Part shown: positions 494-35,513 of the stretch, one piece after another
How the letters are laid out: each line of letters opens with the position of its first letter
Position numbering within the stretch: the first letter of the stretch is position 1
Assembly (NCBI GenBank): GCA_039180205.1
Contig: JBCDDR010000002.1
Span: 1-35,513, forward strand
DNA: 35,513 nt
Direction of reading: 5' to 3'
Origin: Pseudomonadota bacterium
Lineage (GTDB): Bacteria; Pseudomonadota; Alphaproteobacteria; Sphingomonadales; JBCDDR01
Translations under genes and position numbers: made by a program
The notes under the pieces: model-generated
Told to the model about the DNA's origin: nothing
The model's input: only the letters and a program-made list of their open reading frames with translations
Databases searched by the model: none

Positions 494-2944
494 TTACGAA
501 CGCGAACGGCCTGCAACTTTCGATGATGGCGTCGCGCGCGGAAGACCAACCACAAGCTCTGCCACCTCTGTTTGCCACGCACCACGCCGCGCGTTCGGAT
601 CACGCCTCAGGAAAATGCGCCCGCCCATTTCCTTGATGAGCGTCTCAGCAAGAACCAATGCCGCCCGCCGTCTAGCGGTTTCACCTGATTGCAGGCCCCT
701 CGCTGGCACATGTGCGACCAGGCGATCAAATTGAAAGGCCTTGTCCCACAAAGGTAACGGGATACGGACACCTGCCATTTCATCGTCGAGGACCTGATAT
801 GTGAGCGCGATTGGAGCGCCCGGATGGCCAAAACGAATAGCTTCCAGAAGCAACGTAGTGAGCACGCGCTTCAGCCCCTCCGGATCACCAATCACCGTCG
901 CCGCCTCAACCGGTCCAAGGGCGCGATGTATGATAGAAATCTCGTTCGTCTTTTCAGTTTCCAAAACCGCCACGTCGATCAAGTCCCCCCATTCGAGCGC
1001 AACTTCTCCAAGGGGGTAGGAGCCATCCTCAAGCTTCGCGAGAAACAGGATATCGTTGAGAAGGGTTTCGATCGCCTGTGCGGCGGAGTGTATCCGTTTG
1101 GCTCGCGCACGATAGGCCGGAGAGACGGGGCCAAGGACCTGATTGTCGATCATTTCCGCAAATCCACCGATTGCGTTCAGCGGGGTCAGCGATTCGTGCG
1201 CAACCGCAGAGAGCTCATCGGTTGAGGTTTTCGCAAGCTCGTCGCTTAACCAGCCTGTTGCCGCGGCTTGCGCTTCATCCGCGGCGGAGGCCGCTTTCGG
1301 ATCGGGTAGGAAACCCTTCGTATGCCAATGTGGTTGGATGTCTCCAAGCCGTTGAAACGTTGATTCGCTCTGGGTGGTTCCGCGAAATCCCTGAAACCGA
1401 CCGGTAGGAAGATCAAAAACAGGAACCGCCGATAAGCGCTGCGAACGATCCGCAATGGTTATGGGCAAAAGGCGAAAGGGCGAGCGGCGATCAAGAGCGG
1501 TGTTCATGCGATCGCGTTGCTGCTCCTCCAAGATAAGCGCAACGAGCGATTGCCCAATCGCTTTGCTCGGAGCCAAACGCCATACCCTTGCAAGCTCCGG
1601 GGAAATTGAACGTAAACAGCCGAACCGGTCGGTTTCCCACTCACCGCCGAAAACGTCGTCGCCCGGGCCATTGCCATTTTTGAGATTTGGCGGTGAAAAC
1701 GGATCTTCCGCAGGCGAGCCGCGGCCGCTCGATCCAGACGGGGCAATTCCATCGCCATTCTGGGGGGGGAAGTCGCTCGTTTCGGGCGAGCCCTCAGGAG
1801 GCGAATTCAGCGGAAGTGCGCTGGTTTCACCACTGACGAATGTATCATCACGCTCACCGGTCAATCCTTCGTCTGTGGAGAGCGATATCGTTTCGTCTGC
1901 GATCGCATGGGAAGTCTCACACTCAAAACGCTTCGGCGGCTCAACATAAGAACCAGTGGTGTCGGAGACCAGTTTCAAATGAGGCCCGTCGTTGCCTGAC
2001 GTAAACAATCCCGATCTCGAGGCGAGTGACGGCGTATTCCAGGATGCTGAGACCTCATCATCAGGGCGAGCGGACCCGACTGAGCGTATTTCGTCTTTTG
2101 GAAGGGCGTTGACCGATGCTTCGGACGCTGCGATCGCTTGAGGCCCAAACAAATCGATAATTCGCTCGGAATCTTTCGCACGATCAGCGCGATTTTGGCG
2201 AAATGTCTCCAGCTTTTCGAGCAGATCGCGCACCTCATGCCCCTTCGACGCAGACACCTTGATATCGTCTTCATGGGTATCCGCTGAAGCATCTTCGGTC
2301 AGCGCGGGCAGAACGCTTTCTGAAGTCTCACCATCGCCATCAAAATCAGGGCGCAGATCATCAATATCCTCGCGGCGACTGACAAACTCATCAAACCCCG
2401 AAAGATCGATAACGGCTTGCGGCTTGCTCTCTTCTTCGATCTCGCTATCGTCGGTAGCGTGTGTTGCGTTGGTTGATTGTTGCGAAAGGTCCGCCTCTGC
2501 GGCGGGCGCAAACATGAAATCTTCGCCAAAACTCGGAAACAGATGCGGAGAAATGTCTCCACGCGCATGAAGGGCAGCGCGGTGCGGTTCACTCAGTTCG
2601 GGCAAAAGCGCCTGCCACTGATCATCGTCAAGTCTGAGCCCTGCAACCAAGGGTTCGATGGCAGACTCTTCATCATCGAACAAAACAATCAGATAATCGA
2701 CTGCCGCATGTCGGACTGCGGCCACGGTTTTCAACACATGCTGACGTACATGGACAGGTACGCTAGAGCGCATACGCACAAGCAAATCCAACGCCTTTCG
2801 ACGCTGATGAGGATGACGCACGCTCGCCCGGCGACACAGAAACAGGTCAACGATCTGACGGTAGACGCACGCCCGCAATGCCGGCGATAAATCCCCCTCA
2901 GCCAGGGCGCTCAATGCGCGAAGGCTATCGTTAAAATACAGCAT
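494..2944 (-). CDS. Soluble histidine-kinase-like protein with an intact HisKA H-box and a degenerate catalytic (HATPase_c-like) domain
   Basis: The track ORF is 494..3046. I prefer the ATG at 2944 (MLYFNDS...). The H-box is AHESLTPLNAIGGFAEMI. In the downstream CA-like region the N-box reads LLLEAIRF (Glu where the Mg-ATP Asn is expected). No DxGxG or GxGxG lids are recognisable. A PAS-like segment lies upstream and the middle contains a long acidic, Ser/Pro-rich stretch. No TM helix was seen. Confidence 0.7.
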   Translation of the reverse strand: MLYFNDSLRALSALAEGDLSPALRACVYRQIVDLFLCRRASVRHPHQRRKALDLLVRMRSSVPVHVRQHVLKTVAAVRHAAVDYLIVLFDDEESAIEPLVAGLRLDDDQWQALLPELSEPHRAALHARGDISPHLFPSFGEDFMFAPAAEADLSQQSTNATHATDDSEIEEESKPQAVIDLSGFDEFVSRREDIDDLRPDFDGDGETSESVLPALTEDASADTHEDDIKVSASKGHEVRDLLEKLETFRQNRADRAKDSERIIDLFGPQAIAASEASVNALPKDEIRSVGSARPDDEVSASWNTPSLASRSGLFTSGNDGPHLKLVSDTTGSYVEPPKRFECETSHAIADETISLSTDEGLTGERDDTFVSGETSALPLNSPPEGSPETSDFPPQNGDGIAPSGSSGRGSPAEDPFSPPNLKNGNGPGDDVFGGEWETDRFGCLRSISPELARVWRLAPSKAIGQSLVALILEEQQRDRMNTALDRRSPFRLLPITIADRSQRLSAVPVFDLPTGRFQGFRGTTQSESTFQRLGDIQPHWHTKGFLPDPKAASAADEAQAAATGWLSDELAKTSTDELSAVAHESLTPLNAIGGFAEMIDNQVLGPVSPAYRARAKRIHSAAQAIETLLNDILFLAKLEDGSYPLGEVALEWGDLIDVAVLETEKTNEISIIHRALGPVEAATVIGDPEGLKRVLTTLLLEAIRFGHPGAPIALTYQVLDDEMAGVRIPLPLWDKAFQFDRLVAHVPARGLQSGETARRRAALVLAETLIKEMGGRIFLRRDPNARRGAWQTEVAELVVGLPRATPSSKVAGRSRS

Positions 2945-3123
2945 TCCCCACCAAACCCACAAACGCAACTGGAGCCGCCTGGTTTCCCCGATGATGCAAT
3001 TGAAACCCTTGTGCGACCGCGCCGCGATCAGGGTTCCGCCAGGCACTCATGCTCAACGTCAAAAAAACGGCGTTTTCCCCTACCCGTCTCTAAGACATTG
3101 AAATCGGATGCCGAAATCACTGC

Positions 3124-4049: not shown

Positions 4050-5138
4050 TCACCCGGTGCGAATGGTCCGAAAACGACGATATAGCGAACGGATCAGTTT
4101 CAAGCTTGGCCGCTCAATGAAATAGGTCATGGCACTTGCGATGGTGAGTGCGACCGCAAGCGCCGTGCCGGTGGATATCCAGAAATCGAAACCTCCCTCA
4201 TACAGGCTTTTCATAATGCGATAGCCGATATTCTGGTGGGTGAGGTAAAGACTGTAGGAAATCGTCCCCAAAAACACGAGAGGGCGCAGCGCAATCCATT
4301 TGAGCCAGCCCGATACAAATCCGATGAACGCCGCATAAAAAACCGTAATGAATGCCATTTCCACCAGATCGTAACGGAGGAAATTAACGGCGTAACTACC
4401 GATGATTAATGAGAGGGGGCCGAACGACCAGCCATCACGCCGCACGATATAGAAGGCAATGCCGGCAACAAAAAGCTGGCCATAGGTGAGGACGAGATAC
4501 CCGATAATCCTGCCAACCCAGACGTCTACTTCGGCAAGCCCGGTTGCCACCGTGATCGCGCCTGCGATCAGCCACACCCAACAGAATAGTCTGATTTTAT
4601 CGAGCGCCCCACACGCAAACGCCAGGCAGACCAATGCGTAAAAACAAAGTTCGACAGTCAGTGTCCAATAGACGCCATCGACATGAGGCACGAAGGGTTT
4701 GTGCATCAATGTAAAGTTCAAGAACACCTGCGTAATCGTTACCTCAAGACCCGGCAAAGGGGCGATGGCAAGAACGGTCGCAGTCAGGATGACCGCAAAC
4801 CAAAAAGGTGGGAAAATTCGGGAAAAGCGCGAAACGACGAAGTCGGCAGGGACCTTGCAGCGCAGGACAGTCATGAAAATCACAAAGCCCGAGATCATAA
4901 AAAAGAGCTCGACCCCCAGATAACCCAACGTGAGCCGGAAGGGGGGAAGTTCCGGGTGCCGAAACAACTCGTGATAGCGCTGGGTATAATGATAGATCAC
5001 CACGACCAGTGCGGCTATGCCCCGGAAAACGTCGAGCTCAAGAAGGCGCCCATCAGACACCTTCAGGCCGGGTGACCGCTCCGTGGTGCTGGCTGCCGAG
5101 CTTATGTGAACAGCATCACGGGGAGGGGCGGATGCCAT
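4050..5138 (-). CDS. Acyltransferase family 3 (OafA/YrhL-like) integral membrane O-acyltransferase
   Basis: 362 aa, polytopic. The N-terminal signature is LELDVFRGIAALVVVIYHY, followed by about 10 hydrophobic segments. It starts 12 nt downstream of the GT2 gene stop. Confidence 0.75.
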   Translation of the reverse strand: MASAPPRDAVHISSAASTTERSPGLKVSDGRLLELDVFRGIAALVVVIYHYTQRYHELFRHPELPPFRLTLGYLGVELFFMISGFVIFMTVLRCKVPADFVVSRFSRIFPPFWFAVILTATVLAIAPLPGLEVTITQVFLNFTLMHKPFVPHVDGVYWTLTVELCFYALVCLAFACGALDKIRLFCWVWLIAGAITVATGLAEVDVWVGRIIGYLVLTYGQLFVAGIAFYIVRRDGWSFGPLSLIIGSYAVNFLRYDLVEMAFITVFYAAFIGFVSGWLKWIALRPLVFLGTISYSLYLTHQNIGYRIMKSLYEGGFDFWISTGTALAVALTIASAMTYFIERPSLKLIRSLYRRFRTIRTG

Positions 5139-5150
5139 GAGGACGCTGTC

Positions 5151-6338
5151 CTATTTCTTCCAGGTGAGAACCGACGAGACGCCATAATTCCAGACCACAC
5201 CCACCAGCACACCCGCAATGGCCGAAAGCCACCAGGCGGTATCGAGGTTATAGATATATTGAGCGACACCCACGTTGCCGATCGCGCCGACGGCGCAAAT
5301 CGCGTAGAATGAAAGGAGCCCGGTGAAAAAGCGGGTCCCGGTCAGGCGTTTATCGCGATAGGTGATAAAGTTGTTGAGGATATAGTTGAACGTCATCGCG
5401 ACGATGGTCGCAATCCCCTGCGCGATCGCAAAACCGATCGCCAACGCCTTGAAGGCCACCCCAAGCACGGCGAGATGGACAATCAGGCCCAGCCCGCCAA
5501 TCGCGGCAAACATGACAAAGCGCACGGGCACGATATGCCCGACCATTTTATCAAGCAGCATCACGAGGTATTCCCAGGCGACAGCACTATCGAGCTTGCT
5601 CTCACCGGCGACGCGCGTGCGGAATTCGTAAGGTAGTTCTTTCACTTTCAGTGGTTCGGGTGATGAGGCCACCAGGTCCAGCAGAATTTTGAACCCAATT
5701 CCCGAGGTCTCCCGAACCGAGCGGGTAAAGGCCTCTCGCGTCACCATAAAAAATCCGCTCATAGGATCGCTCAAGCGCACATTTTTGAGCACCATGTCAG
5801 ACAGCCTGGTTGCGAATTTCGATATTGACTGGCGGCTTTCTTCCCAATCCCCGAACCCGCCGCCCTCGACATATCGGCTCCCGACCGCAAGGTCATAGCC
5901 GTCCGCGCGCAATGCGTGCAGCATATCGGGTAGAATTCGCTCATCATGTTGCATATCGCCATCAATGACCGCGAGATAGGGTGCAGGCGTTGCCAGCATC
6001 CCTTCGATGACCGCAGTGGAAAGGCCGCGCCGACCGATCCGCTGCACGACGCGGACGCGGGGATTGTTACGGCCGATTTCGCGCACCAGATCGGCGGTGC
6101 CATCGGTCGAGTCATCATCGACAAACACGGCTTCCCACGTGACCCCAGTCAAGGCATCGTCGAGTTTGGCGAGCAGCGGTCGTACATTGTCAAATTCATT
6201 GAGCACGGGGATGATCACCGCGACGGTCAAATCCCCCGCGGACGCGGGCCGGGGTGCCGCATCAGCATTCACCGCACGGTTTTTGCCTTCAGCATCGATT
6301 TCGGTCTCAAGCACAACTTCAGACAGTTTTGCGGACAT
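5151..6338 (-). CDS. Family 2 glycosyltransferase (polyprenyl-phosphate sugar synthase, DPM1/GtrB/ArnC-like) fused to a C-terminal GtrA-like 4-TM domain
   Basis: The GT-A core is VAVIIPVLNEFDNV...VFVDDDSTDGT...IDGDMQHD. The C-terminal roughly 120 aa (VRFVMFAAIGGLGLIVHLAVL...NYILNNFITYRD...VWNYGVSSVLTWKK) matches the GtrA-like pattern. Confidence 0.8.
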   Translation of the reverse strand: MSAKLSEVVLETEIDAEGKNRAVNADAAPRPASAGDLTVAVIIPVLNEFDNVRPLLAKLDDALTGVTWEAVFVDDDSTDGTADLVREIGRNNPRVRVVQRIGRRGLSTAVIEGMLATPAPYLAVIDGDMQHDERILPDMLHALRADGYDLAVGSRYVEGGGFGDWEESRQSISKFATRLSDMVLKNVRLSDPMSGFFMVTREAFTRSVRETSGIGFKILLDLVASSPEPLKVKELPYEFRTRVAGESKLDSAVAWEYLVMLLDKMVGHIVPVRFVMFAAIGGLGLIVHLAVLGVAFKALAIGFAIAQGIATIVAMTFNYILNNFITYRDKRLTGTRFFTGLLSFYAICAVGAIGNVGVAQYIYNLDTAWWLSAIAGVLVGVVWNYGVSSVLTWKK

Positions 6339-8106
6339 TATCGATCATTCCCCCTTGGCCACCCGTCTCAACAGGCTTTTTCGGCGATATCACCATGCGA
6401 ATACTGATCATAGCGAGCAATAGCAAAAAGAAACTGAACAAACTGATCCATGGTGCCAAACGTTCAAGCGCGACACCTGCCCAGGAAATGCTGACGCTTT
6501 GCGCTCCTTGCGGTGCTTCCAAACGGATGAGACCGCTTTGCCTGTCCTTCGTTAGCGGCACAGTTTCGCCATTCATCGCGACCTCTAGCGCGGGAAAGGC
6601 GAAGAAAGGTAGGATGATTGGTTGTTGCGTGGGTGACGTGAAAGCCAGTTCCCACCCGGATTTGATCCGGCGGCGCGGGCTACACGACAGTCGTTGCCGT
6701 GCGCATTCGCCCTGCCAGCCACCGCTGTCTCGATAGTCACGCCAACCACTCTCAGGTGGCAAATATTCGCCGAGCCCCTTGTAAGGAATGAGTTGATCCT
6801 CCCGGCTCGCAAGTGGCGTTCCATCCATCAGGGCATTTTTCGAAAGAATGGCGATCCCCATCGCGGCATGAAGGGCGATGGGCAAGGCAACGATCACGAG
6901 GCCAAGATGCTCCCGTTTAGGTGCAAGCCGTACCCATGCGTACGCGGCGAGGATGAGCGCGATGGGCGTTAGAAGCGTCATGAAGCGAAAGGGGAATTGC
7001 ACCTTTCGAAGCGGAGTGTCGAAAAGCCAAAGCGGGTAACTGAGCTCGGAAGCGAAAAAGAGTGCTGCCAAAGCCATTGCGATAAGCGCGATCGCCGGCG
7101 AAAACGCATGATCACCAGCGCCACGGTCGGCGGGCTTTGACCGCGAAAGGGCTATCGCGGCCCCAACGACAAGCAACAGCAATGCCACCGGAATAGGCCA
7201 CTGAAAAGCAAACCAGCGCATGCCATTTGCCGCCCATGAAAATGTTGAAAATGCGAAGGCATCCCAGGGAACATATTTATTGGTCCATACGCCAGCGCTG
7301 ATCATGTCGAGGGAGCCCATCGCCGGGATAAGGTAAAAGCCCGACAGCCCCAACCCCAGGACAACAGCACACAACCAGGCAACCCACGGTCGCGGATTGA
7401 TCGCCAAGGGGCCTATCGTCAAACGGTTCGGACGGTCCATTTGCGATCTGGATACAGCCCCGAATACATGAAAACTCACCACCATGAGCGCCAGAAGCGC
7501 GGTCACCGTGTGGGTGATCACCAACAGCGCGATCGAGATGGTCGCAAGCGGATTGACCCAAAGTGATGGCGCCTTAGGTCGCATGACCGCGTAGATCAGC
7601 ATGGCCGCGGGCGCCATCGCAACCGCCCAGGGAAAGCCATTGAACCCGTGATGCAAGAGCAGCGTCATCGGTGCAATGATCGCCGAAAGCCCGGCAATTC
7701 GACCGAGCCTTGGTGTCGCCCAGATACTCACCGTTTTGGCGACGAAAAGCCCCAACCAGAAGCTCGCGAAAATCTCCACGATTTGCATCGCTGTAAAGGT
7801 GTTCGACACGATCTGCCGAACCAGCGCAGTGGCCCAGTAGTAAAGCGGTGAGTAAAAAAGCAGCGCGGGTTCACCCAGACCGCCGTTTGCGTAGGCCATC
7901 CAGCGCGGATAAAAATCGCCAACGCCCCAGGCTTCGACCATTTCCATCGACCAGCGATAATGCACGAGAAAGTCGAGATTTGAATCGACCCGGGCAAAAA
8001 CGAGATGCGGCACGTGCGCAACAATTGCGGCAAAGAAAAATAGCAGCACGGCGGGCCATTCAACCCGCGGCGTTGGTCTGTCGTCAAACGTGGCTGCGTC
8101 GGTCAT
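6319..8106 (-). CDS. Large polytopic membrane protein, putative GT-C-type (ArnT/PMT/GtrC-like) glycosyltransferase
   Basis: 595 aa with many hydrophobic helices. It has an N-terminal YPRW....NGGLGEP.LLFYSPLYY loop, a soluble-looking domain near the C-terminus and a final TM. Its stop overlaps the GT2 start by 20 nt. The family assignment comes from topology and context only. Confidence 0.5.
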   Translation of the reverse strand: MTDAATFDDRPTPRVEWPAVLLFFFAAIVAHVPHLVFARVDSNLDFLVHYRWSMEMVEAWGVGDFYPRWMAYANGGLGEPALLFYSPLYYWATALVRQIVSNTFTAMQIVEIFASFWLGLFVAKTVSIWATPRLGRIAGLSAIIAPMTLLLHHGFNGFPWAVAMAPAAMLIYAVMRPKAPSLWVNPLATISIALLVITHTVTALLALMVVSFHVFGAVSRSQMDRPNRLTIGPLAINPRPWVAWLCAVVLGLGLSGFYLIPAMGSLDMISAGVWTNKYVPWDAFAFSTFSWAANGMRWFAFQWPIPVALLLLVVGAAIALSRSKPADRGAGDHAFSPAIALIAMALAALFFASELSYPLWLFDTPLRKVQFPFRFMTLLTPIALILAAYAWVRLAPKREHLGLVIVALPIALHAAMGIAILSKNALMDGTPLASREDQLIPYKGLGEYLPPESGWRDYRDSGGWQGECARQRLSCSPRRRIKSGWELAFTSPTQQPIILPFFAFPALEVAMNGETVPLTKDRQSGLIRLEAPQGAQSVSISWAGVALERLAPWISLFSFFLLLLAMISIRMVISPKKPVETGGQGGMIDNVRKTV

Positions 8107-32232: not shown

Positions 32233-32733
32233 GTGGATGTGAATGCGCCAGACGACGATACACCCGAACATCCTTTCACCGGGGTGACAGGTCTCGATGT
32301 TGCGCGCGGCGTGATGCGTCATCTCGCCGAATGCGGTGCCGTTGCCCTTACCGAGGTACCTGTCAATCGCCGTCGCCGCGTGGATGTGATGGCGATGACA
32401 TCGGCGGGCACACTGATTATCGTCGAGGTGAAAGTCAGTCTTGCCGATTTACGCGGGGATCAGAAATGGCCCGAATATCTGGCATACTGTGACCAGTTTT
32501 ACTTCGCCGTACCGCCTCAGTTTCCTGTTGACGTCCTCGACGAAGATCGCTTTCGCCCCGCCGAAGCAGGGCTTATTTTAGCCGACGCATTTGCGGGGCA
32601 TTGTGCGCGCACCGCACCGGTTCAAAAAATCGCGCCTGCGCGCCGAAAGGCACAAACGATATTGTTTGCCCGACGGGCGGCGATGCGGCTTCAGGCACTT
32701 GAAGATCCAGGCTTTCGACAGCCCTGGGCCTAG
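32233..32733 (+). CDS. mmcB: MmcB-family (DUF1052, PD-(D/E)xK-like) DNA repair protein
   Basis: Motifs are RRRVDVMAMTSAGTLIIVEVKVSLADLRGDQKWPEYLAYCDQFYFAVPP. The start is a GTG. Confidence 0.65.
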   Translation: MDVNAPDDDTPEHPFTGVTGLDVARGVMRHLAECGAVALTEVPVNRRRRVDVMAMTSAGTLIIVEVKVSLADLRGDQKWPEYLAYCDQFYFAVPPQFPVDVLDEDRFRPAEAGLILADAFAGHCARTAPVQKIAPARRKAQTILFARRAAMRLQALEDPGFRQPWA

Positions 32734-32751: not shown

Positions 32752-34965
32752 TCACGAAACCAGTTCGACAAAGCCCTCTCTATCTGAACGCCATTCTTCC
32801 AGATAAGGCCGACCTCCCCGGTGATCGACGACGAACGCCAGCGCCGTCATAATTTCGGTGGTACAGCCGTTGGTTTTTTCTTCCTCGGCGACCATTTCAA
32901 GCGCGCGTTCAATGGTCATCGCTGCGCGAAAGGCGCGTGGGCTGATCATTGAGACAAACTGGTTCGAAAGCCGCAGCAGAGCCGCCCCTCGACGGATCGC
33001 CTGCTGATCGAAGTTTTCGGTCTCCATGCTGAGGTCAGTGTCTGGATCAATCGCCAGTCGAAGCAACGGCGCGACAGGTCTTGAGAAAGGCACTTTTTCA
33101 ATCAGTGTGATCACCTTTTTCAGGTTTTGGCGCACCAGGTCTTGCTCGGCGTCACTCAGCGCCGATGCGCGGGTCAACAGCGAGCGTGGGGTCAGCAATT
33201 TTCCGGCATTCAATAGCCATGCGGCCTGCGATACGGCATCGGCCATCGGCTCGGCGAGTGCCATGGCATCGGCGGCCTCCTCAACAAGGAAATGCAACGC
33301 GGCCGAATGTTTGGCGGCGAAGGGGTCGCGTGCATCAATGAGTGCGATCAACAGCTGAACAAGTTCTTCTTGTACGGCGCGATAATTGCTCTCAGCCGCC
33401 ACAGTTTCAGATAAGTCATGCCAGGTCAGAATGGCGAAGGCATCAGTAGCCTCATCCAGAATACGCGCATCGACGCGCCCCTGACGCGGTTGACCTTTGA
33501 TGATCAGTTCAATGTCTTCTCCTGAAGGCAGACCGCGATTTTCCGCATCGCCTAAAACGGTTAGCAGCGGTTCGGCCAGGGTGGCTCCAAGGAGGGCGTG
33601 TAGATCCTTGCCAGTACAATCCTCTCGGGAAATCCCGGCGAGGCGCGCCGCCCCCTCGTTCGCAAAGACAACTTCGCCATTTCCACTGAGGGCGAAAATG
33701 ACGGTCGGCTGCGCGTCAATTGTCGTCCGCAAAAGCGAGGCAAGTGCGCTCTGTTGGGTTGCCAGCATGTGCGTCTGGTTTGCGAGTGCCGCTAACTTCA
33801 TCGATGACCCATGCCGCCAAGCGAGGATAATTGACGCGGCAGCTGCCAGAATCGCCGAAATCACTGAGATGAGCAGCAACCGACGGCTTTTTCGGATCGG
33901 GGCGAGAACGGCGTCGGCTTCACGCGTCTCCATCAATGTCCACGGCGTGCCCGCGATCCGCCTCCCCGTAGCAAAAACTCTTGAGCCGAGCGCGCCCCTT
34001 GCATCGATGATTGTTCCCGGCGTCGATAGAACCTGGGCCGCTGCCGGGGCATCGCTGGCGGCCCGCCGCGTTCCAACGTCCAGCCAATCCCTATCGGTGT
34101 AAAGGTATGCGACAGCCTCTGGTGCAGGATTATTCGATGGTTCAAGAAGCGCCCAACGCGTATCTTCCCGCTCACCCGCAAAAATAGGCCCGCGCGCGAG
34201 GTCTTCCGAAAAACGCGGCTTCATGTCTTGCACAACCAAAAGATACGCGCTCGGTGATGCGCCGGGATCTGATTGAACCGCGGCGACTGGGGCGAGCAAT
34301 ATCATCGCTGGCGCTGATTGCGGAACGCCCAGTTTGGGGCCCCATTCGCCAATTCCCGACAGAATGAGCGGCTCTGACCCCAGTAGGGCGCGGGGCAAAA
34401 GCTCTGTGACCGAGGGGGCAATCCCAGCTTGAGATGGGCCGTTCCCCCATCCACCGATCCCCCATCCACCGATCCCAAGGAGCGGGGAGCCGTTTGCCGC
34501 GAGCAAAACAAGTCCGCCTGTCACGGTTCGGCCAATGTTTGCCCCGCGAACGCCTGAACTTTCTGACCCTAAAAACCCTTGCTGTTCCGCCGCGAGCGAC
34601 AGTGCGTTTTGTAAATAGGCAGCCGCCGCAGCTTTTGTATCTTCCGTTTCGGTCTCGCTTTGCAAAAGACTGGCATAGAGCGCGATAGAAGGGTTTGTGG
34701 CAAGCCTTTGCACCGCACGAGCACTCGCATTGATAACGCCGGAAAGTGCGGTTGCCCGTGCATCGGCTGACCGGGCCAGTGTGGCGTGGGCAAGAGCGAG
34801 GTCGCGGTCGGTCGTTTTGGCCGAATAGACAAACACGATCGCAATGGCGGATAGGACAAGGCCGACCAATAGACCAACGAATACCCAGAGCCGGGTCTGG
34901 CTCGGTGTATTGGCGGTGTCTATGGTTGCCACAAGCCCGGGTACTTCTCTCGGATTATTGAGCAC
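32752..34965 (-). CDS. Two-TM sensor/receptor with a large periplasmic domain, a PAS-like segment and a degenerate HD-GYP-like C-terminal domain
   Basis: TM1 is LWVFVGLLVGLVLSAIAIVFVY. About 320 aa of extracytoplasmic sequence follow. TM2 is LLLISVISAILAAAASIILAW. The PAS-like segment is PTVIFALSGNGEVVFANEGAARLAGISREDCTGKDLHALL. The C-terminus keeps the HD-GYP block order (LIDARDPFAAKHS ... AWLLNAGKLLTP ... SNQFVSMISPRAFRAAMT). However, the HD dyad reads LN and no GYP block is present. The start is a GTG. Confidence 0.65.
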   Translation of the reverse strand: MLNNPREVPGLVATIDTANTPSQTRLWVFVGLLVGLVLSAIAIVFVYSAKTTDRDLALAHATLARSADARATALSGVINASARAVQRLATNPSIALYASLLQSETETEDTKAAAAAYLQNALSLAAEQQGFLGSESSGVRGANIGRTVTGGLVLLAANGSPLLGIGGWGIGGWGNGPSQAGIAPSVTELLPRALLGSEPLILSGIGEWGPKLGVPQSAPAMILLAPVAAVQSDPGASPSAYLLVVQDMKPRFSEDLARGPIFAGEREDTRWALLEPSNNPAPEAVAYLYTDRDWLDVGTRRAASDAPAAAQVLSTPGTIIDARGALGSRVFATGRRIAGTPWTLMETREADAVLAPIRKSRRLLLISVISAILAAAASIILAWRHGSSMKLAALANQTHMLATQQSALASLLRTTIDAQPTVIFALSGNGEVVFANEGAARLAGISREDCTGKDLHALLGATLAEPLLTVLGDAENRGLPSGEDIELIIKGQPRQGRVDARILDEATDAFAILTWHDLSETVAAESNYRAVQEELVQLLIALIDARDPFAAKHSAALHFLVEEAADAMALAEPMADAVSQAAWLLNAGKLLTPRSLLTRASALSDAEQDLVRQNLKKVITLIEKVPFSRPVAPLLRLAIDPDTDLSMETENFDQQAIRRGAALLRLSNQFVSMISPRAFRAAMTIERALEMVAEEEKTNGCTTEIMTALAFVVDHRGGRPYLEEWRSDREGFVELVS
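34444..34476. repeat. Tandem direct repeat, 15-bp unit cccccatccaccgat x2 plus a partial third copy, inside the receptor gene (encodes IGGWG-IGGWG)
   Basis: Read directly from the sequence. Unit 1 is 34444-34458, unit 2 is 34459-34473, then ccc follows. Confidence 0.9.
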
Positions 34966-35032
34966 GATACGCCTTTTCCCTTTGCCTGCTGCGGGTCATC
35001 CATTCTCAGCAATAGGTTATTCACCAAGACCT

Positions 35033-35047
35033 TTAACGCCGACTTAA
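35033..35047. promoter_or_regulatory. Perfect CtrA-type box TTAA-N7-TTAA in the divergent intergenic region
   Basis: ttaa cgccgac ttaa lies at 35033-35047. That is 68 nt from the receptor start (34965) and 66 nt from the first candidate start of the peptidase gene (35113). Confidence 0.35.
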
Positions 35048-35112
35048 ATACATGGTGACACCTTTCCGCTTTAAGTCCTGATCCGGCACTTCGGCCCTTT
35101 CGCATCCATTTG

Positions 35113-35513
35113 ATGGGCCGGCAGCAAGCGAGGCGTTTTGTGTCGAAAAACTTCACCCCGTTCATCTTCACTCGCATCGGACGATATTGTCTGATGACAG
35201 TAGTGGTCTGCGGGCTGTTGTGCTTCGTGGGGATGCCGCGTGAGGCTTCAGCCCGATCCGAAGCGGGGCTGTTCGGCACCCGCGAAGTCGAGCGGCGGGA
35301 TATCAGTGCGTTTCATAAATGGCTCGCCATGCTGGACCGCCATAATCGCAAAATTTCGTCTTCTCAGTCTCCAAAGGAAGCAATTGGGACGTGCCGCCCG
35401 GAGATGTTCGCCATTTGCGGCCCGCAATTAAAGCGGATCGACCCTTCGCACTGGAAGCATCTATCGGGTCGTGACCTGATAGATGCCGTCAATCGTGGCA
35501 TCAATCGCGCGCG
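35113..35513 (+). CDS. Partial (5' end only) secreted transglutaminase-like cysteine peptidase, BTLCP/LapG family
   Basis: This is my own translation. The frame is open from 35059 to the window end, so it is absent from the ORF track. It reads MGRQQARRFVSKNFTPFIFTRIGRYCLMTVVVCGLLCFVGMPREASARSEAGLFGT...ISAFHKWLAMLDRHNRKI...CRPEMFAICGPQ...WKHLSGRDLIDAVNRGINRA. The signal peptide, W..ML.R, the Cys pair and the AVN..IN blocks match N-termini of BTLCP (PF06035) proteins. The start could be 35113 or 35194. Confidence 0.6.
   Translation, partial: MGRQQARRFVSKNFTPFIFTRIGRYCLMTVVVCGLLCFVGMPREASARSEAGLFGTREVERRDISAFHKWLAMLDRHNRKISSSQSPKEAIGTCRPEMFAICGPQLKRIDPSHWKHLSGRDLIDAVNRGINRA

Follow-up and report, generated by a model that had tools for sequence, protein, structure and literature searches.

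A divergent DvhD homologue beside a putative LapG-like peptidase gene in a sphingomonadal contig: a candidate c-di-GMP-controlled periplasmic protease switch

Contig JBCDDR010000002.1 of the Pseudomonadota assembly GCA_039180205.1 (Alphaproteobacteria, Sphingomonadales) ends in two divergently transcribed genes, one for a 737-amino-acid (aa) membrane receptor with a degenerate HD-GYP domain and the other, cut by the contig end, for a protein resembling the bacterial transglutaminase-like cysteine peptidases (BTLCPs), the family of LapG. Do the two genes form an inside-out switch, as an original prediction for this locus proposed, with a dead HD-GYP domain and a PAS domain replacing the GGDEF-EAL domains of LapD as the cytoplasmic sensor of cyclic di-GMP (c-di-GMP)? 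We analysed the whole contig (35.5 kb, 545 open reading frames (ORFs); hereafter the window). Judged by its sequence, the receptor is a divergent alphaproteobacterial homologue of DvhD from end to end, with the full DvhD architecture, and homology to the characterised DvhD/DvhG pair supports the proposed switch. We assign a probability of roughly 0.6 to the reading that the pair is a DvhD/DvhG-type, c-di-GMP-controlled periplasmic protease switch working like LapD/LapG.

The receptor gene and its parts lie on the minus strand of the window as follows, with the evidence for each in brackets (AF2, AlphaFold2 model; TM1 and TM2, transmembrane segments).

32752–34965, minus strand: receptor gene, DvhD homologue of 737 aa with TM1, dCache, TM2, PAS and degenerate HD-GYP (ORF, Pfam, PDB match, hhalign, AF2)
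34813–34896, minus strand: TM1, about residues 24–51 (Kyte-Doolittle 19-residue windows above 1.8; within the long AF2 helix 22–89)
33886–34812, minus strand: periplasmic dCache domain, about residues 52–360 (AF2, Foldseek, hhalign, column conservation)
33814–33885, minus strand: TM2, about residues 361–384 (hydropathy; AF2 helix 350–418)
33415–33732, minus strand: cytoplasmic PAS domain, residues 412–517 (Pfam PAS, E 6e-9; PAS_4, E 6e-5; aligns to the DvhD PAS domain in 9rc0)
32875–33354, minus strand: degenerate HD-GYP domain, residues 538–697 (Pfam HD_5, E 2e-12)
33208–33213, minus strand: L585-N586 replacing the catalytic HD dyad (alignment with the HD of V-cGAP3, 5z7c, and the SQ of DvhD)
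33019–33036, minus strand: D644-L-S-M-E-T649 replacing the D-G-[ST]-G-x-P (GYP) loop (family column counts)

Hydropathy places a periplasmic region of about 310 aa between the two transmembrane segments. The full-length AF2 model has a pLDDT of 86.9, and the model of the periplasmic part (residues 49–352; pLDDT 83.8, pTM 0.84) has a dCache fold. The predicted layout of two transmembrane segments, a periplasmic region and a PAS domain in a 737-aa protein stands on the ORF, hydropathy and Pfam, and the predicted HD-GYP block order was recovered as three blocks at residues 542–554, 582–593 and 667–684. In the phmmer alignment of the receptor with the 3'3'-cGAMP phosphodiesterase V-cGAP3 of Vibrio cholerae (5z7c), HD reads LN, as had been predicted, the next conserved H reads N, HH reads ID, and GTGYP reads LSMET, so that the foreseen lack of a GYP motif is borne out as well. 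Taken from these alignments, the metal-binding set of an HD-GYP phosphodiesterase is almost wholly lost. With other residues at every metal-ligand position (LN for HD, N for H and ID for HH) and MET in place of the GYP motif, hydrolysis of c-di-GMP by this domain is very unlikely; DvhD, with metal-ligand losses similar to those of the receptor, is experimentally inactive (PMC13090378). The fold and block order are common to the receptor and to active HD-GYP phosphodiesterases (PmGH, 4mcw; V-cGAP3, 5z7c; the RpfG family). We rejected an active phosphodiesterase on alignments in which the HD dyad, the HHE motif and the GYP motif of the receptor are all replaced, and we regard the degenerate domain as a probable c-di-GMP-binding module.

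Several comparisons lead to DvhD. By sequence, the top PDB match is DvhD (9rc0/9rbz; phmmer, E 1.6e-17, receptor residues 426–720); both entries bear the title 'HD domain/sensory box protein' and come from Font et al., Nat Commun 2026 (PMC13090378). Foldseek with the AF2 model of the receptor also ranks DvhD 9rc0 first in the PDB (E 8e-13), and against the c-di-GMP-bound DvhD HD-GYP domain (9rbz) the model reaches a template-modelling (TM) score of 0.77–0.80. For the periplasmic model, the leading match is DctB (3e4p; E 1.5e-6), followed in second place by the periplasmic domain of DvhD (9rc2; E 2.5e-6, TM score 0.66). Profile-profile alignment (hhalign) of the window family with seven ORFs of DvhD orthologues covers the whole protein over 654 columns (probability 100%, E 1e-81), and the periplasmic part alone still aligns with the orthologues (probability 98.1%, E 7e-14). 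BLASTP against the orthologue of Nitratidesulfovibrio sp. HK-II (L085) gives an alignment (E 2e-22) that starts where the periplasmic domain ends and continues through to the C-terminus.

DvhD of Desulfovibrio vulgaris has two transmembrane segments, a periplasmic dCache and, in the cytoplasm, a PAS domain and an HD-GYP domain with SQ for HD and MN for HH (PMC13090378; Karbelkar et al., PNAS 2024, PMC10990149). Its Kd for c-di-GMP is about 0.3 µM; it leaves the bound nucleotide unhydrolysed and controls the BTLCP DvhG, which cleaves the adhesin DvhA, a substrate of a type I secretion system (T1SS) (PMC10990149, PMC13090378); DvhD's regulation of DvhG has been shown to depend on c-di-GMP (PMC10990149). 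The pair of Desulfovibrio (Nitratidesulfovibrio) vulgaris Hildenborough (DvhD, DVU1020/BfsD; DvhG, DVU1019/BfsG) thus shares with the window the domain order of the receptor, an HD-GYP domain free of metal ligands, and a receptor gene adjoining a BTLCP gene. The two pairs differ in these respects: the HD dyad is LN in the window receptor and SQ in DvhD; DvhD keeps a GYP motif, whereas the window receptor has lost the GYP loop; dvhG and dvhD are co-directional in an operon, whereas the window genes diverge; the Dvh locus has adjacent T1SS and adhesin genes, which the window lacks; DvhG carries a transmembrane anchor and a 180-aa linker, whereas the window peptidase seemingly has a cleavable signal peptide; and the host is an alphaproteobacterium here and a Desulfovibrio there. 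The original prediction had known of no such combination, but it has already been published as DvhD/DvhG (PMC5646257, PMC10990149, PMC13090378): the switch principle is in print, and the window pair is a divergent further member.

The LapD/LapG systems of Pseudomonas fluorescens, and also of Legionella, Vibrio and Shewanella (BpfD/BpfG), follow the same logic of a two-transmembrane receptor with a dead c-di-GMP domain and a periplasmic BTLCP. An identity of the receptor as LapD itself was rejected, as HAMP, GGDEF, EAL and LapD_MoxY domains are all absent (Pfam) and the periplasmic fold is dCache. DvhD lacks the Trp of the LapD type and DvhG lacks the Trp pocket (PMC13090378), and because of this, docking through a Trp loop is not expected for the window pair. 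Of the predicted likeness to LapD, the receptor-protease logic holds, while the periplasmic domain is of another kind and the Trp loop falls away.

How the window receptor stands among its relatives was examined by an exhaustive HMMER search, which at E ≤ 1e-30 found 217 proteins, each representing a 50%-identity cluster. They are colinear with the window receptor, measure about 700 aa and come mainly from Alphaproteobacteria, some from Betaproteobacteria. They share 25–36% identity with the window receptor (about 30% overall), and the collections searched hold no closer relative. Among the 149 aligned representatives, none has an intact HD dyad: its D is replaced by N in 145, and 113 read MN or LN. 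Other positions, in DvhD numbering, are widely kept (R650 in 148, K563 in 144, L577 in 140 and P567 in 134). The window receptor is among the more divergent members. Members of the alpha- and betaproteobacterial clade with MN or LN carry merely the generic annotation 'HD-GYP domain-containing protein'. Some family members have C-terminal extensions, such as P0115 (1074 aa), with a CHASE2 domain after the HD-GYP-like domain, and P0025 (941 aa).

The second gene begins on the other side of a short spacer.

34966–35112, no strand: divergent intergenic region of 147 bp, extended to 228 bp by a peptidase start at 35194 (ORF starts)
35113–35513, plus strand: 5' part of the putative BTLCP (LapG/DvhG-like) gene, a 133-aa fragment cut at the contig end (custom hidden Markov model, BLASTP)

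The predicted divergent signal-peptide ORF is present: it starts at an ATG at 35113 or 35194, separated by 147 or 228 bp from the start of the receptor gene, and is open at the window end. Its fragment has a signal-peptide-like segment, LMTVVVCGLLCFVG...ASA, followed by LFGTREV...FHKWLAML and a conserved Cys pair. Its assignment to the BTLCPs stood in part. Pfam (including PF06035) and NCBIfam gave no match to the 133 aa at E ≤ 1. With a custom hidden Markov model built from 62 BTLCPs that adjoin homologous receptors, the fragment was the sole match among the window ORFs (E 7e-10, 33.9 bits, model positions 15–110 of 221), and it also matches the PF06035-positive neighbour of the receptor in the related locus L101 (pairwise BLASTP, E 7e-7). 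On these similarities the fragment is, as far as a partial sequence can be assigned, the N-terminal half of a BTLCP of the receptor-linked type. A scan of the spacer for sigma-70 consensus promoters and terminators found nothing, and no longer contig carrying the pair was found by exact-protein look-ups, receptor and peptidase word-index look-ups, or scans of genome and metagenome contigs.

Conserved linkage between the two genes in other genomes, the lack of which the original prediction had named beforehand as refuting, was found across a genome scan of 79 related loci. The scan seeds came from a three-sequence alignment and bias the loci towards typical members, with LMNLGKI or VANAFVAM motifs, the 61- and 13-sequence family alignments being too diverse for pattern scanning. 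The loci are mostly alphaproteobacterial (Rhodospirillales-like metagenome-assembled genomes, Kordiimonas, Emcibacter, Algihabitans and Curvivirga), with Betaproteobacteria represented by Sulfuricella, Azonexus and Rhodocyclaceae. One complete genome with the pair is that of Algihabitans albus (NZ_CP159482). A strong BTLCP lies within 1.5 kb of the receptor in 62 of them, divergently in 48, upstream on the same strand in 11 and downstream in 3. The identifiable Betaproteobacteria fall among the 11 same-strand-upstream loci, which have the dvhG-dvhD order, and 6 of the 17 loci without a linked BTLCP have too little upstream DNA. The three closest relatives (L101–L103) show the same divergent layout as the window, with a PF06035 gene about 90–120 bp upstream. 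The triad His and Asp are kept in 62/62 linked BTLCPs, a set for which the Cys column was a selection criterion. Because the linkage recurs in both Alpha- and Betaproteobacteria, with the genes in two orientations, it argues for the receptor and the BTLCP being a functional pair.

Two BTLCP paralogues lie near the receptor in L158 (7927–8775 and 8999–9709), and likewise in L147, L151, L110 and L166; the D-C-[ED]-D motif that surrounds the catalytic Cys is missing from both copies in L158.

From the analogy with DvhD/DvhG we infer how such a switch would work. The dead HD-GYP dimer would bind c-di-GMP without hydrolysis, as DvhD does biochemically; binding would splay the stalk helices, and the change would be relayed through the PAS domain and the transmembrane helices to the dCache domain. 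This domain would hold or inhibit the secreted BTLCP, probably by way of the conserved alpha1' helix: the motif L88-A89-x-N91-x-S93-x-x-L96-Y97 is conserved in the family and kept in the window receptor, and its counterpart in DvhD is the helix that has been proposed as the surface for binding DvhG. A drop in c-di-GMP would then free the protease to cut a surface protein in its periplasmic retention module. This protein would most likely be an RTX-type adhesin anchored by a T1SS, with its gene elsewhere in the genome, and the cleavage would release the cell from the surface.

Several observations weigh against this switch. The receptor shares just 22% identity with the DvhD orthologues over its cytoplasmic part (BLASTP), and at two periplasmic positions where 97% and 90% of relatives have Trp, the window receptor has A59 and V77. 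On the peptidase side, the positions of the Cys-His-Asp core and of the calcium-binding D-C-E motif fall past the contig end. The other adverse points touch the substrate and the ligand, and there they feed alternatives to be weighed in turn.

As to the substrate, the predicted absence of visible adhesin and T1SS genes was confirmed throughout the 35.5-kb window, the far side of the BTLCP gene lying beyond it, and in the related loci T1SS genes occur within 10 kb in just 3 of 79 (L118, L129 and L143). Alphaproteobacterial BTLCPs, which are widespread, may have roles outside adhesion: HvyA of Caulobacter crescentus is a BTLCP that blocks capsulation and acts on the capsule, not on an adhesin (PMC4241560). 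These points, together with the housekeeping neighbourhood of the pair and its conserved mmcB synteny, favour the same type of switch acting on a non-adhesin envelope target, as in Caulobacter. HvyA, likened here by description alone, resembles the window peptidase in being a secreted BTLCP of an alphaproteobacterium, and differs in its capsule export locus, its control by transcription and proteolysis, and the lack of any described partner receptor (PMC4241560). We consider a non-adhesin target possible but unlikely. Lap and Dvh substrates often have their genes at a distant site, as MapA, CdrA and DVU1545 do (PMC13090378), and the linked BTLCPs match LapG structures well (Legionella LapG 4fgo, E 7e-17).

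A further point for an adhesin is L143 (1–19940), which ties the receptor type to a T1SS and an RTX adhesin and forms a complete Lap-like locus in which T1SS ABC and HlyD genes accompany a BTLCP, the receptor and an RTX protein.

L143, 8240–9514: trypsin-like ORF
L143, 9106–10113, minus strand: BTLCP gene, with the receptor gene on the plus strand

Its 2621-aa protein has RTX repeats, VWA and Big_9 domains and PAAG repeats; PAAGPAAGPAAG lies about 140 residues past its likely start Met, with a Gly-rich stretch after it. We take this PAAGPAAGPAAG to resemble the (T/P/A)AA(G/V) LapG site that follows a retention module. For the DvhD/DvhG-type switch that we prefer, the protease substrate would have to be encoded elsewhere in most genomes, the window's included.

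As to the ligand, the canonical contacts of DvhD (Y523, L577, K582, Y621, M646, R650, Y652 and E668) divide in the window receptor into four identical (L577, M646, R650 and E668), two conservative (Y523 and Y652, each replaced by F) and two lost. The lost two are phosphodiester contacts: K582 is Q, and Y621, the Tyr of GYP, is E, as read from the phmmer alignment at a position that is gapped in the MAFFT family alignment. At the bridging site, K520, P567 and R569 read R, P and S. The Gly, Gly and Pro of the GYP loop, kept in 50/60, 51/60 and 50/60 relatives (about 85%), are L, M and T here, and of the 77 positions conserved at ≥ 85% in the family the window receptor retains 61 (79%), in keeping with its place among the more divergent members. 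Such losses speak for a domain that no longer binds a cyclic dinucleotide, in which case the PAS domain or a periplasmic ligand of the dCache domain would drive the switch, or the protease would be held constitutively. This appears quite unlikely: the contacts conserved across the family are all retained (R650, L577, M646 and P567, with an aromatic side chain at 652 and an acidic or amide one at 668), K582 and Y621 vary across the family too, and the predicted fold matches that of c-di-GMP-bound DvhD. Binding of c-di-GMP by the window receptor is, on these residues, plausible but not assured.

An ordinary outside-in sensor, with ligand sensing by the dCache domain, output from the dead HD-GYP domain through protein interaction, and a BTLCP that is functionally unrelated or processes the receptor, would suit the small ligands usual for dCache domains and the known inactive HD-GYP proteins that act by protein-protein contacts (RpfG, HnoD), but is highly improbable given the BTLCP linkage in 62 of 79 loci of Alpha- and Betaproteobacteria in two orientations and the c-di-GMP-dependent regulation of DvhG by the homologue DvhD (PMC10990149).

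The preferred switch may have a further component in the relatives nearest to the window. Immediately past the BTLCP gene, 13 of the 79 scanned loci, and also L101–L103, have a cytoplasmic ORF of 405–447 aa. Divergent EAL ORFs (PF00563) beyond the BTLCP gene are placed as follows.

L101, 2556–3785, minus strand: divergent EAL ORF
L102, 2755–4077, minus strand: divergent EAL ORF
L103, 610–1935, minus strand: divergent EAL ORF
L170, 7754–9088: divergent EAL ORF, an example from 10 further loci

Nine of ten members match PF00563 (best E 4e-11), their profile matches the EAL protein 8pps in the PDB (E 1e-5), and in the consensus the position of the EGVE motif reads C-D. This divergent EAL protein may give the module a third component with a link to c-di-GMP; the window stops short of the place where it would lie.

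A six-transmembrane PilS-like histidine kinase and a 183-aa REC+HTH regulator also lie a few kb from the pair (L102, 893–2766; L101, 713–2553; and about 15 other loci). The regulators are 63–73% identical among loci, and these genes more resemble housekeeping synteny of the RegB/RegA type than a part of the switch.

In the literature DvhD/DvhG figures chiefly as a system of Desulfovibrionales, and analogous systems elsewhere are said to await identification (PMC13090378). Neither Alpha- nor Betaproteobacteria are mentioned in the text and supplements of the 2026 paper (PMC13090378), nor is the clade with MN or LN in those of the DvhD papers, statements that leave aside the class-level distribution plot in Fig. 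9b of the 2026 paper. Our data suggest that a dCache receptor with a dead HD-GYP domain, joined to a LapG-like protease, is common in both classes, usually in a core chromosomal context away from adhesin operons. This would widen the reach of c-di-GMP-controlled periplasmic proteolysis and supply many natural variants of the ligand site, with no new principle involved. A bolder version, which we offer as a doubtful proposal, would make the [M/L]N-type DvhD-like receptors of these classes a large receptor-protease module undiscussed in the text of the DvhD papers, apparently vertically inherited, mostly uncoupled from T1SS-adhesin loci, and accompanied in the window's nearest sub-clade by the divergent EAL-domain protein. 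Because the GYP loop and the two periplasmic Trp are lost, the window member might in that case answer a signal other than c-di-GMP or control a non-adhesin target like that of HvyA.

The gene next to the receptor on its downstream side bears on inheritance.

32233–32733, plus strand: MmcB-like gene (PF06319, E 3e-41), convergent to the receptor gene across a gap of 18 bp

The MmcB-like neighbour recurs in L103 and L170 and lies within a few kb of the receptor in several other relatives. Because it is convergent to the receptor in several relatives, as in the window, it points to positional orthology and vertical inheritance of the receptor. The rest of the window is housekeeping in character (sdhAB, nrd, dnaX, recR, a his cluster and hslVU, besides the MmcB-like gene). 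A synteny search with hslU returned 80 loci with HslU identity of at most 74%; neither receptor nor peptidase occurs in any of these 80 loci, and hslUV is not near the pair in the relatives.

In the collections searched, the organism of the window is without a close relative: HslU identity to GTDB species representatives reaches 74% at most, and the receptor's highest identity to any representative of about 15 billion proteins is about 35%. Two other minus-strand regions of the window deserve mention. An 850-aa ORF at 494–3046 has HisKA as its sole domain at E ≤ 1e-5, with no HATPase_c or sensor domain. At 4050–8106 lies a small glycan-modification cluster, made up of a 595-aa ORF with no Pfam match, an Acyl_transf_3 gene and a GT2 domain fused to GtrA.

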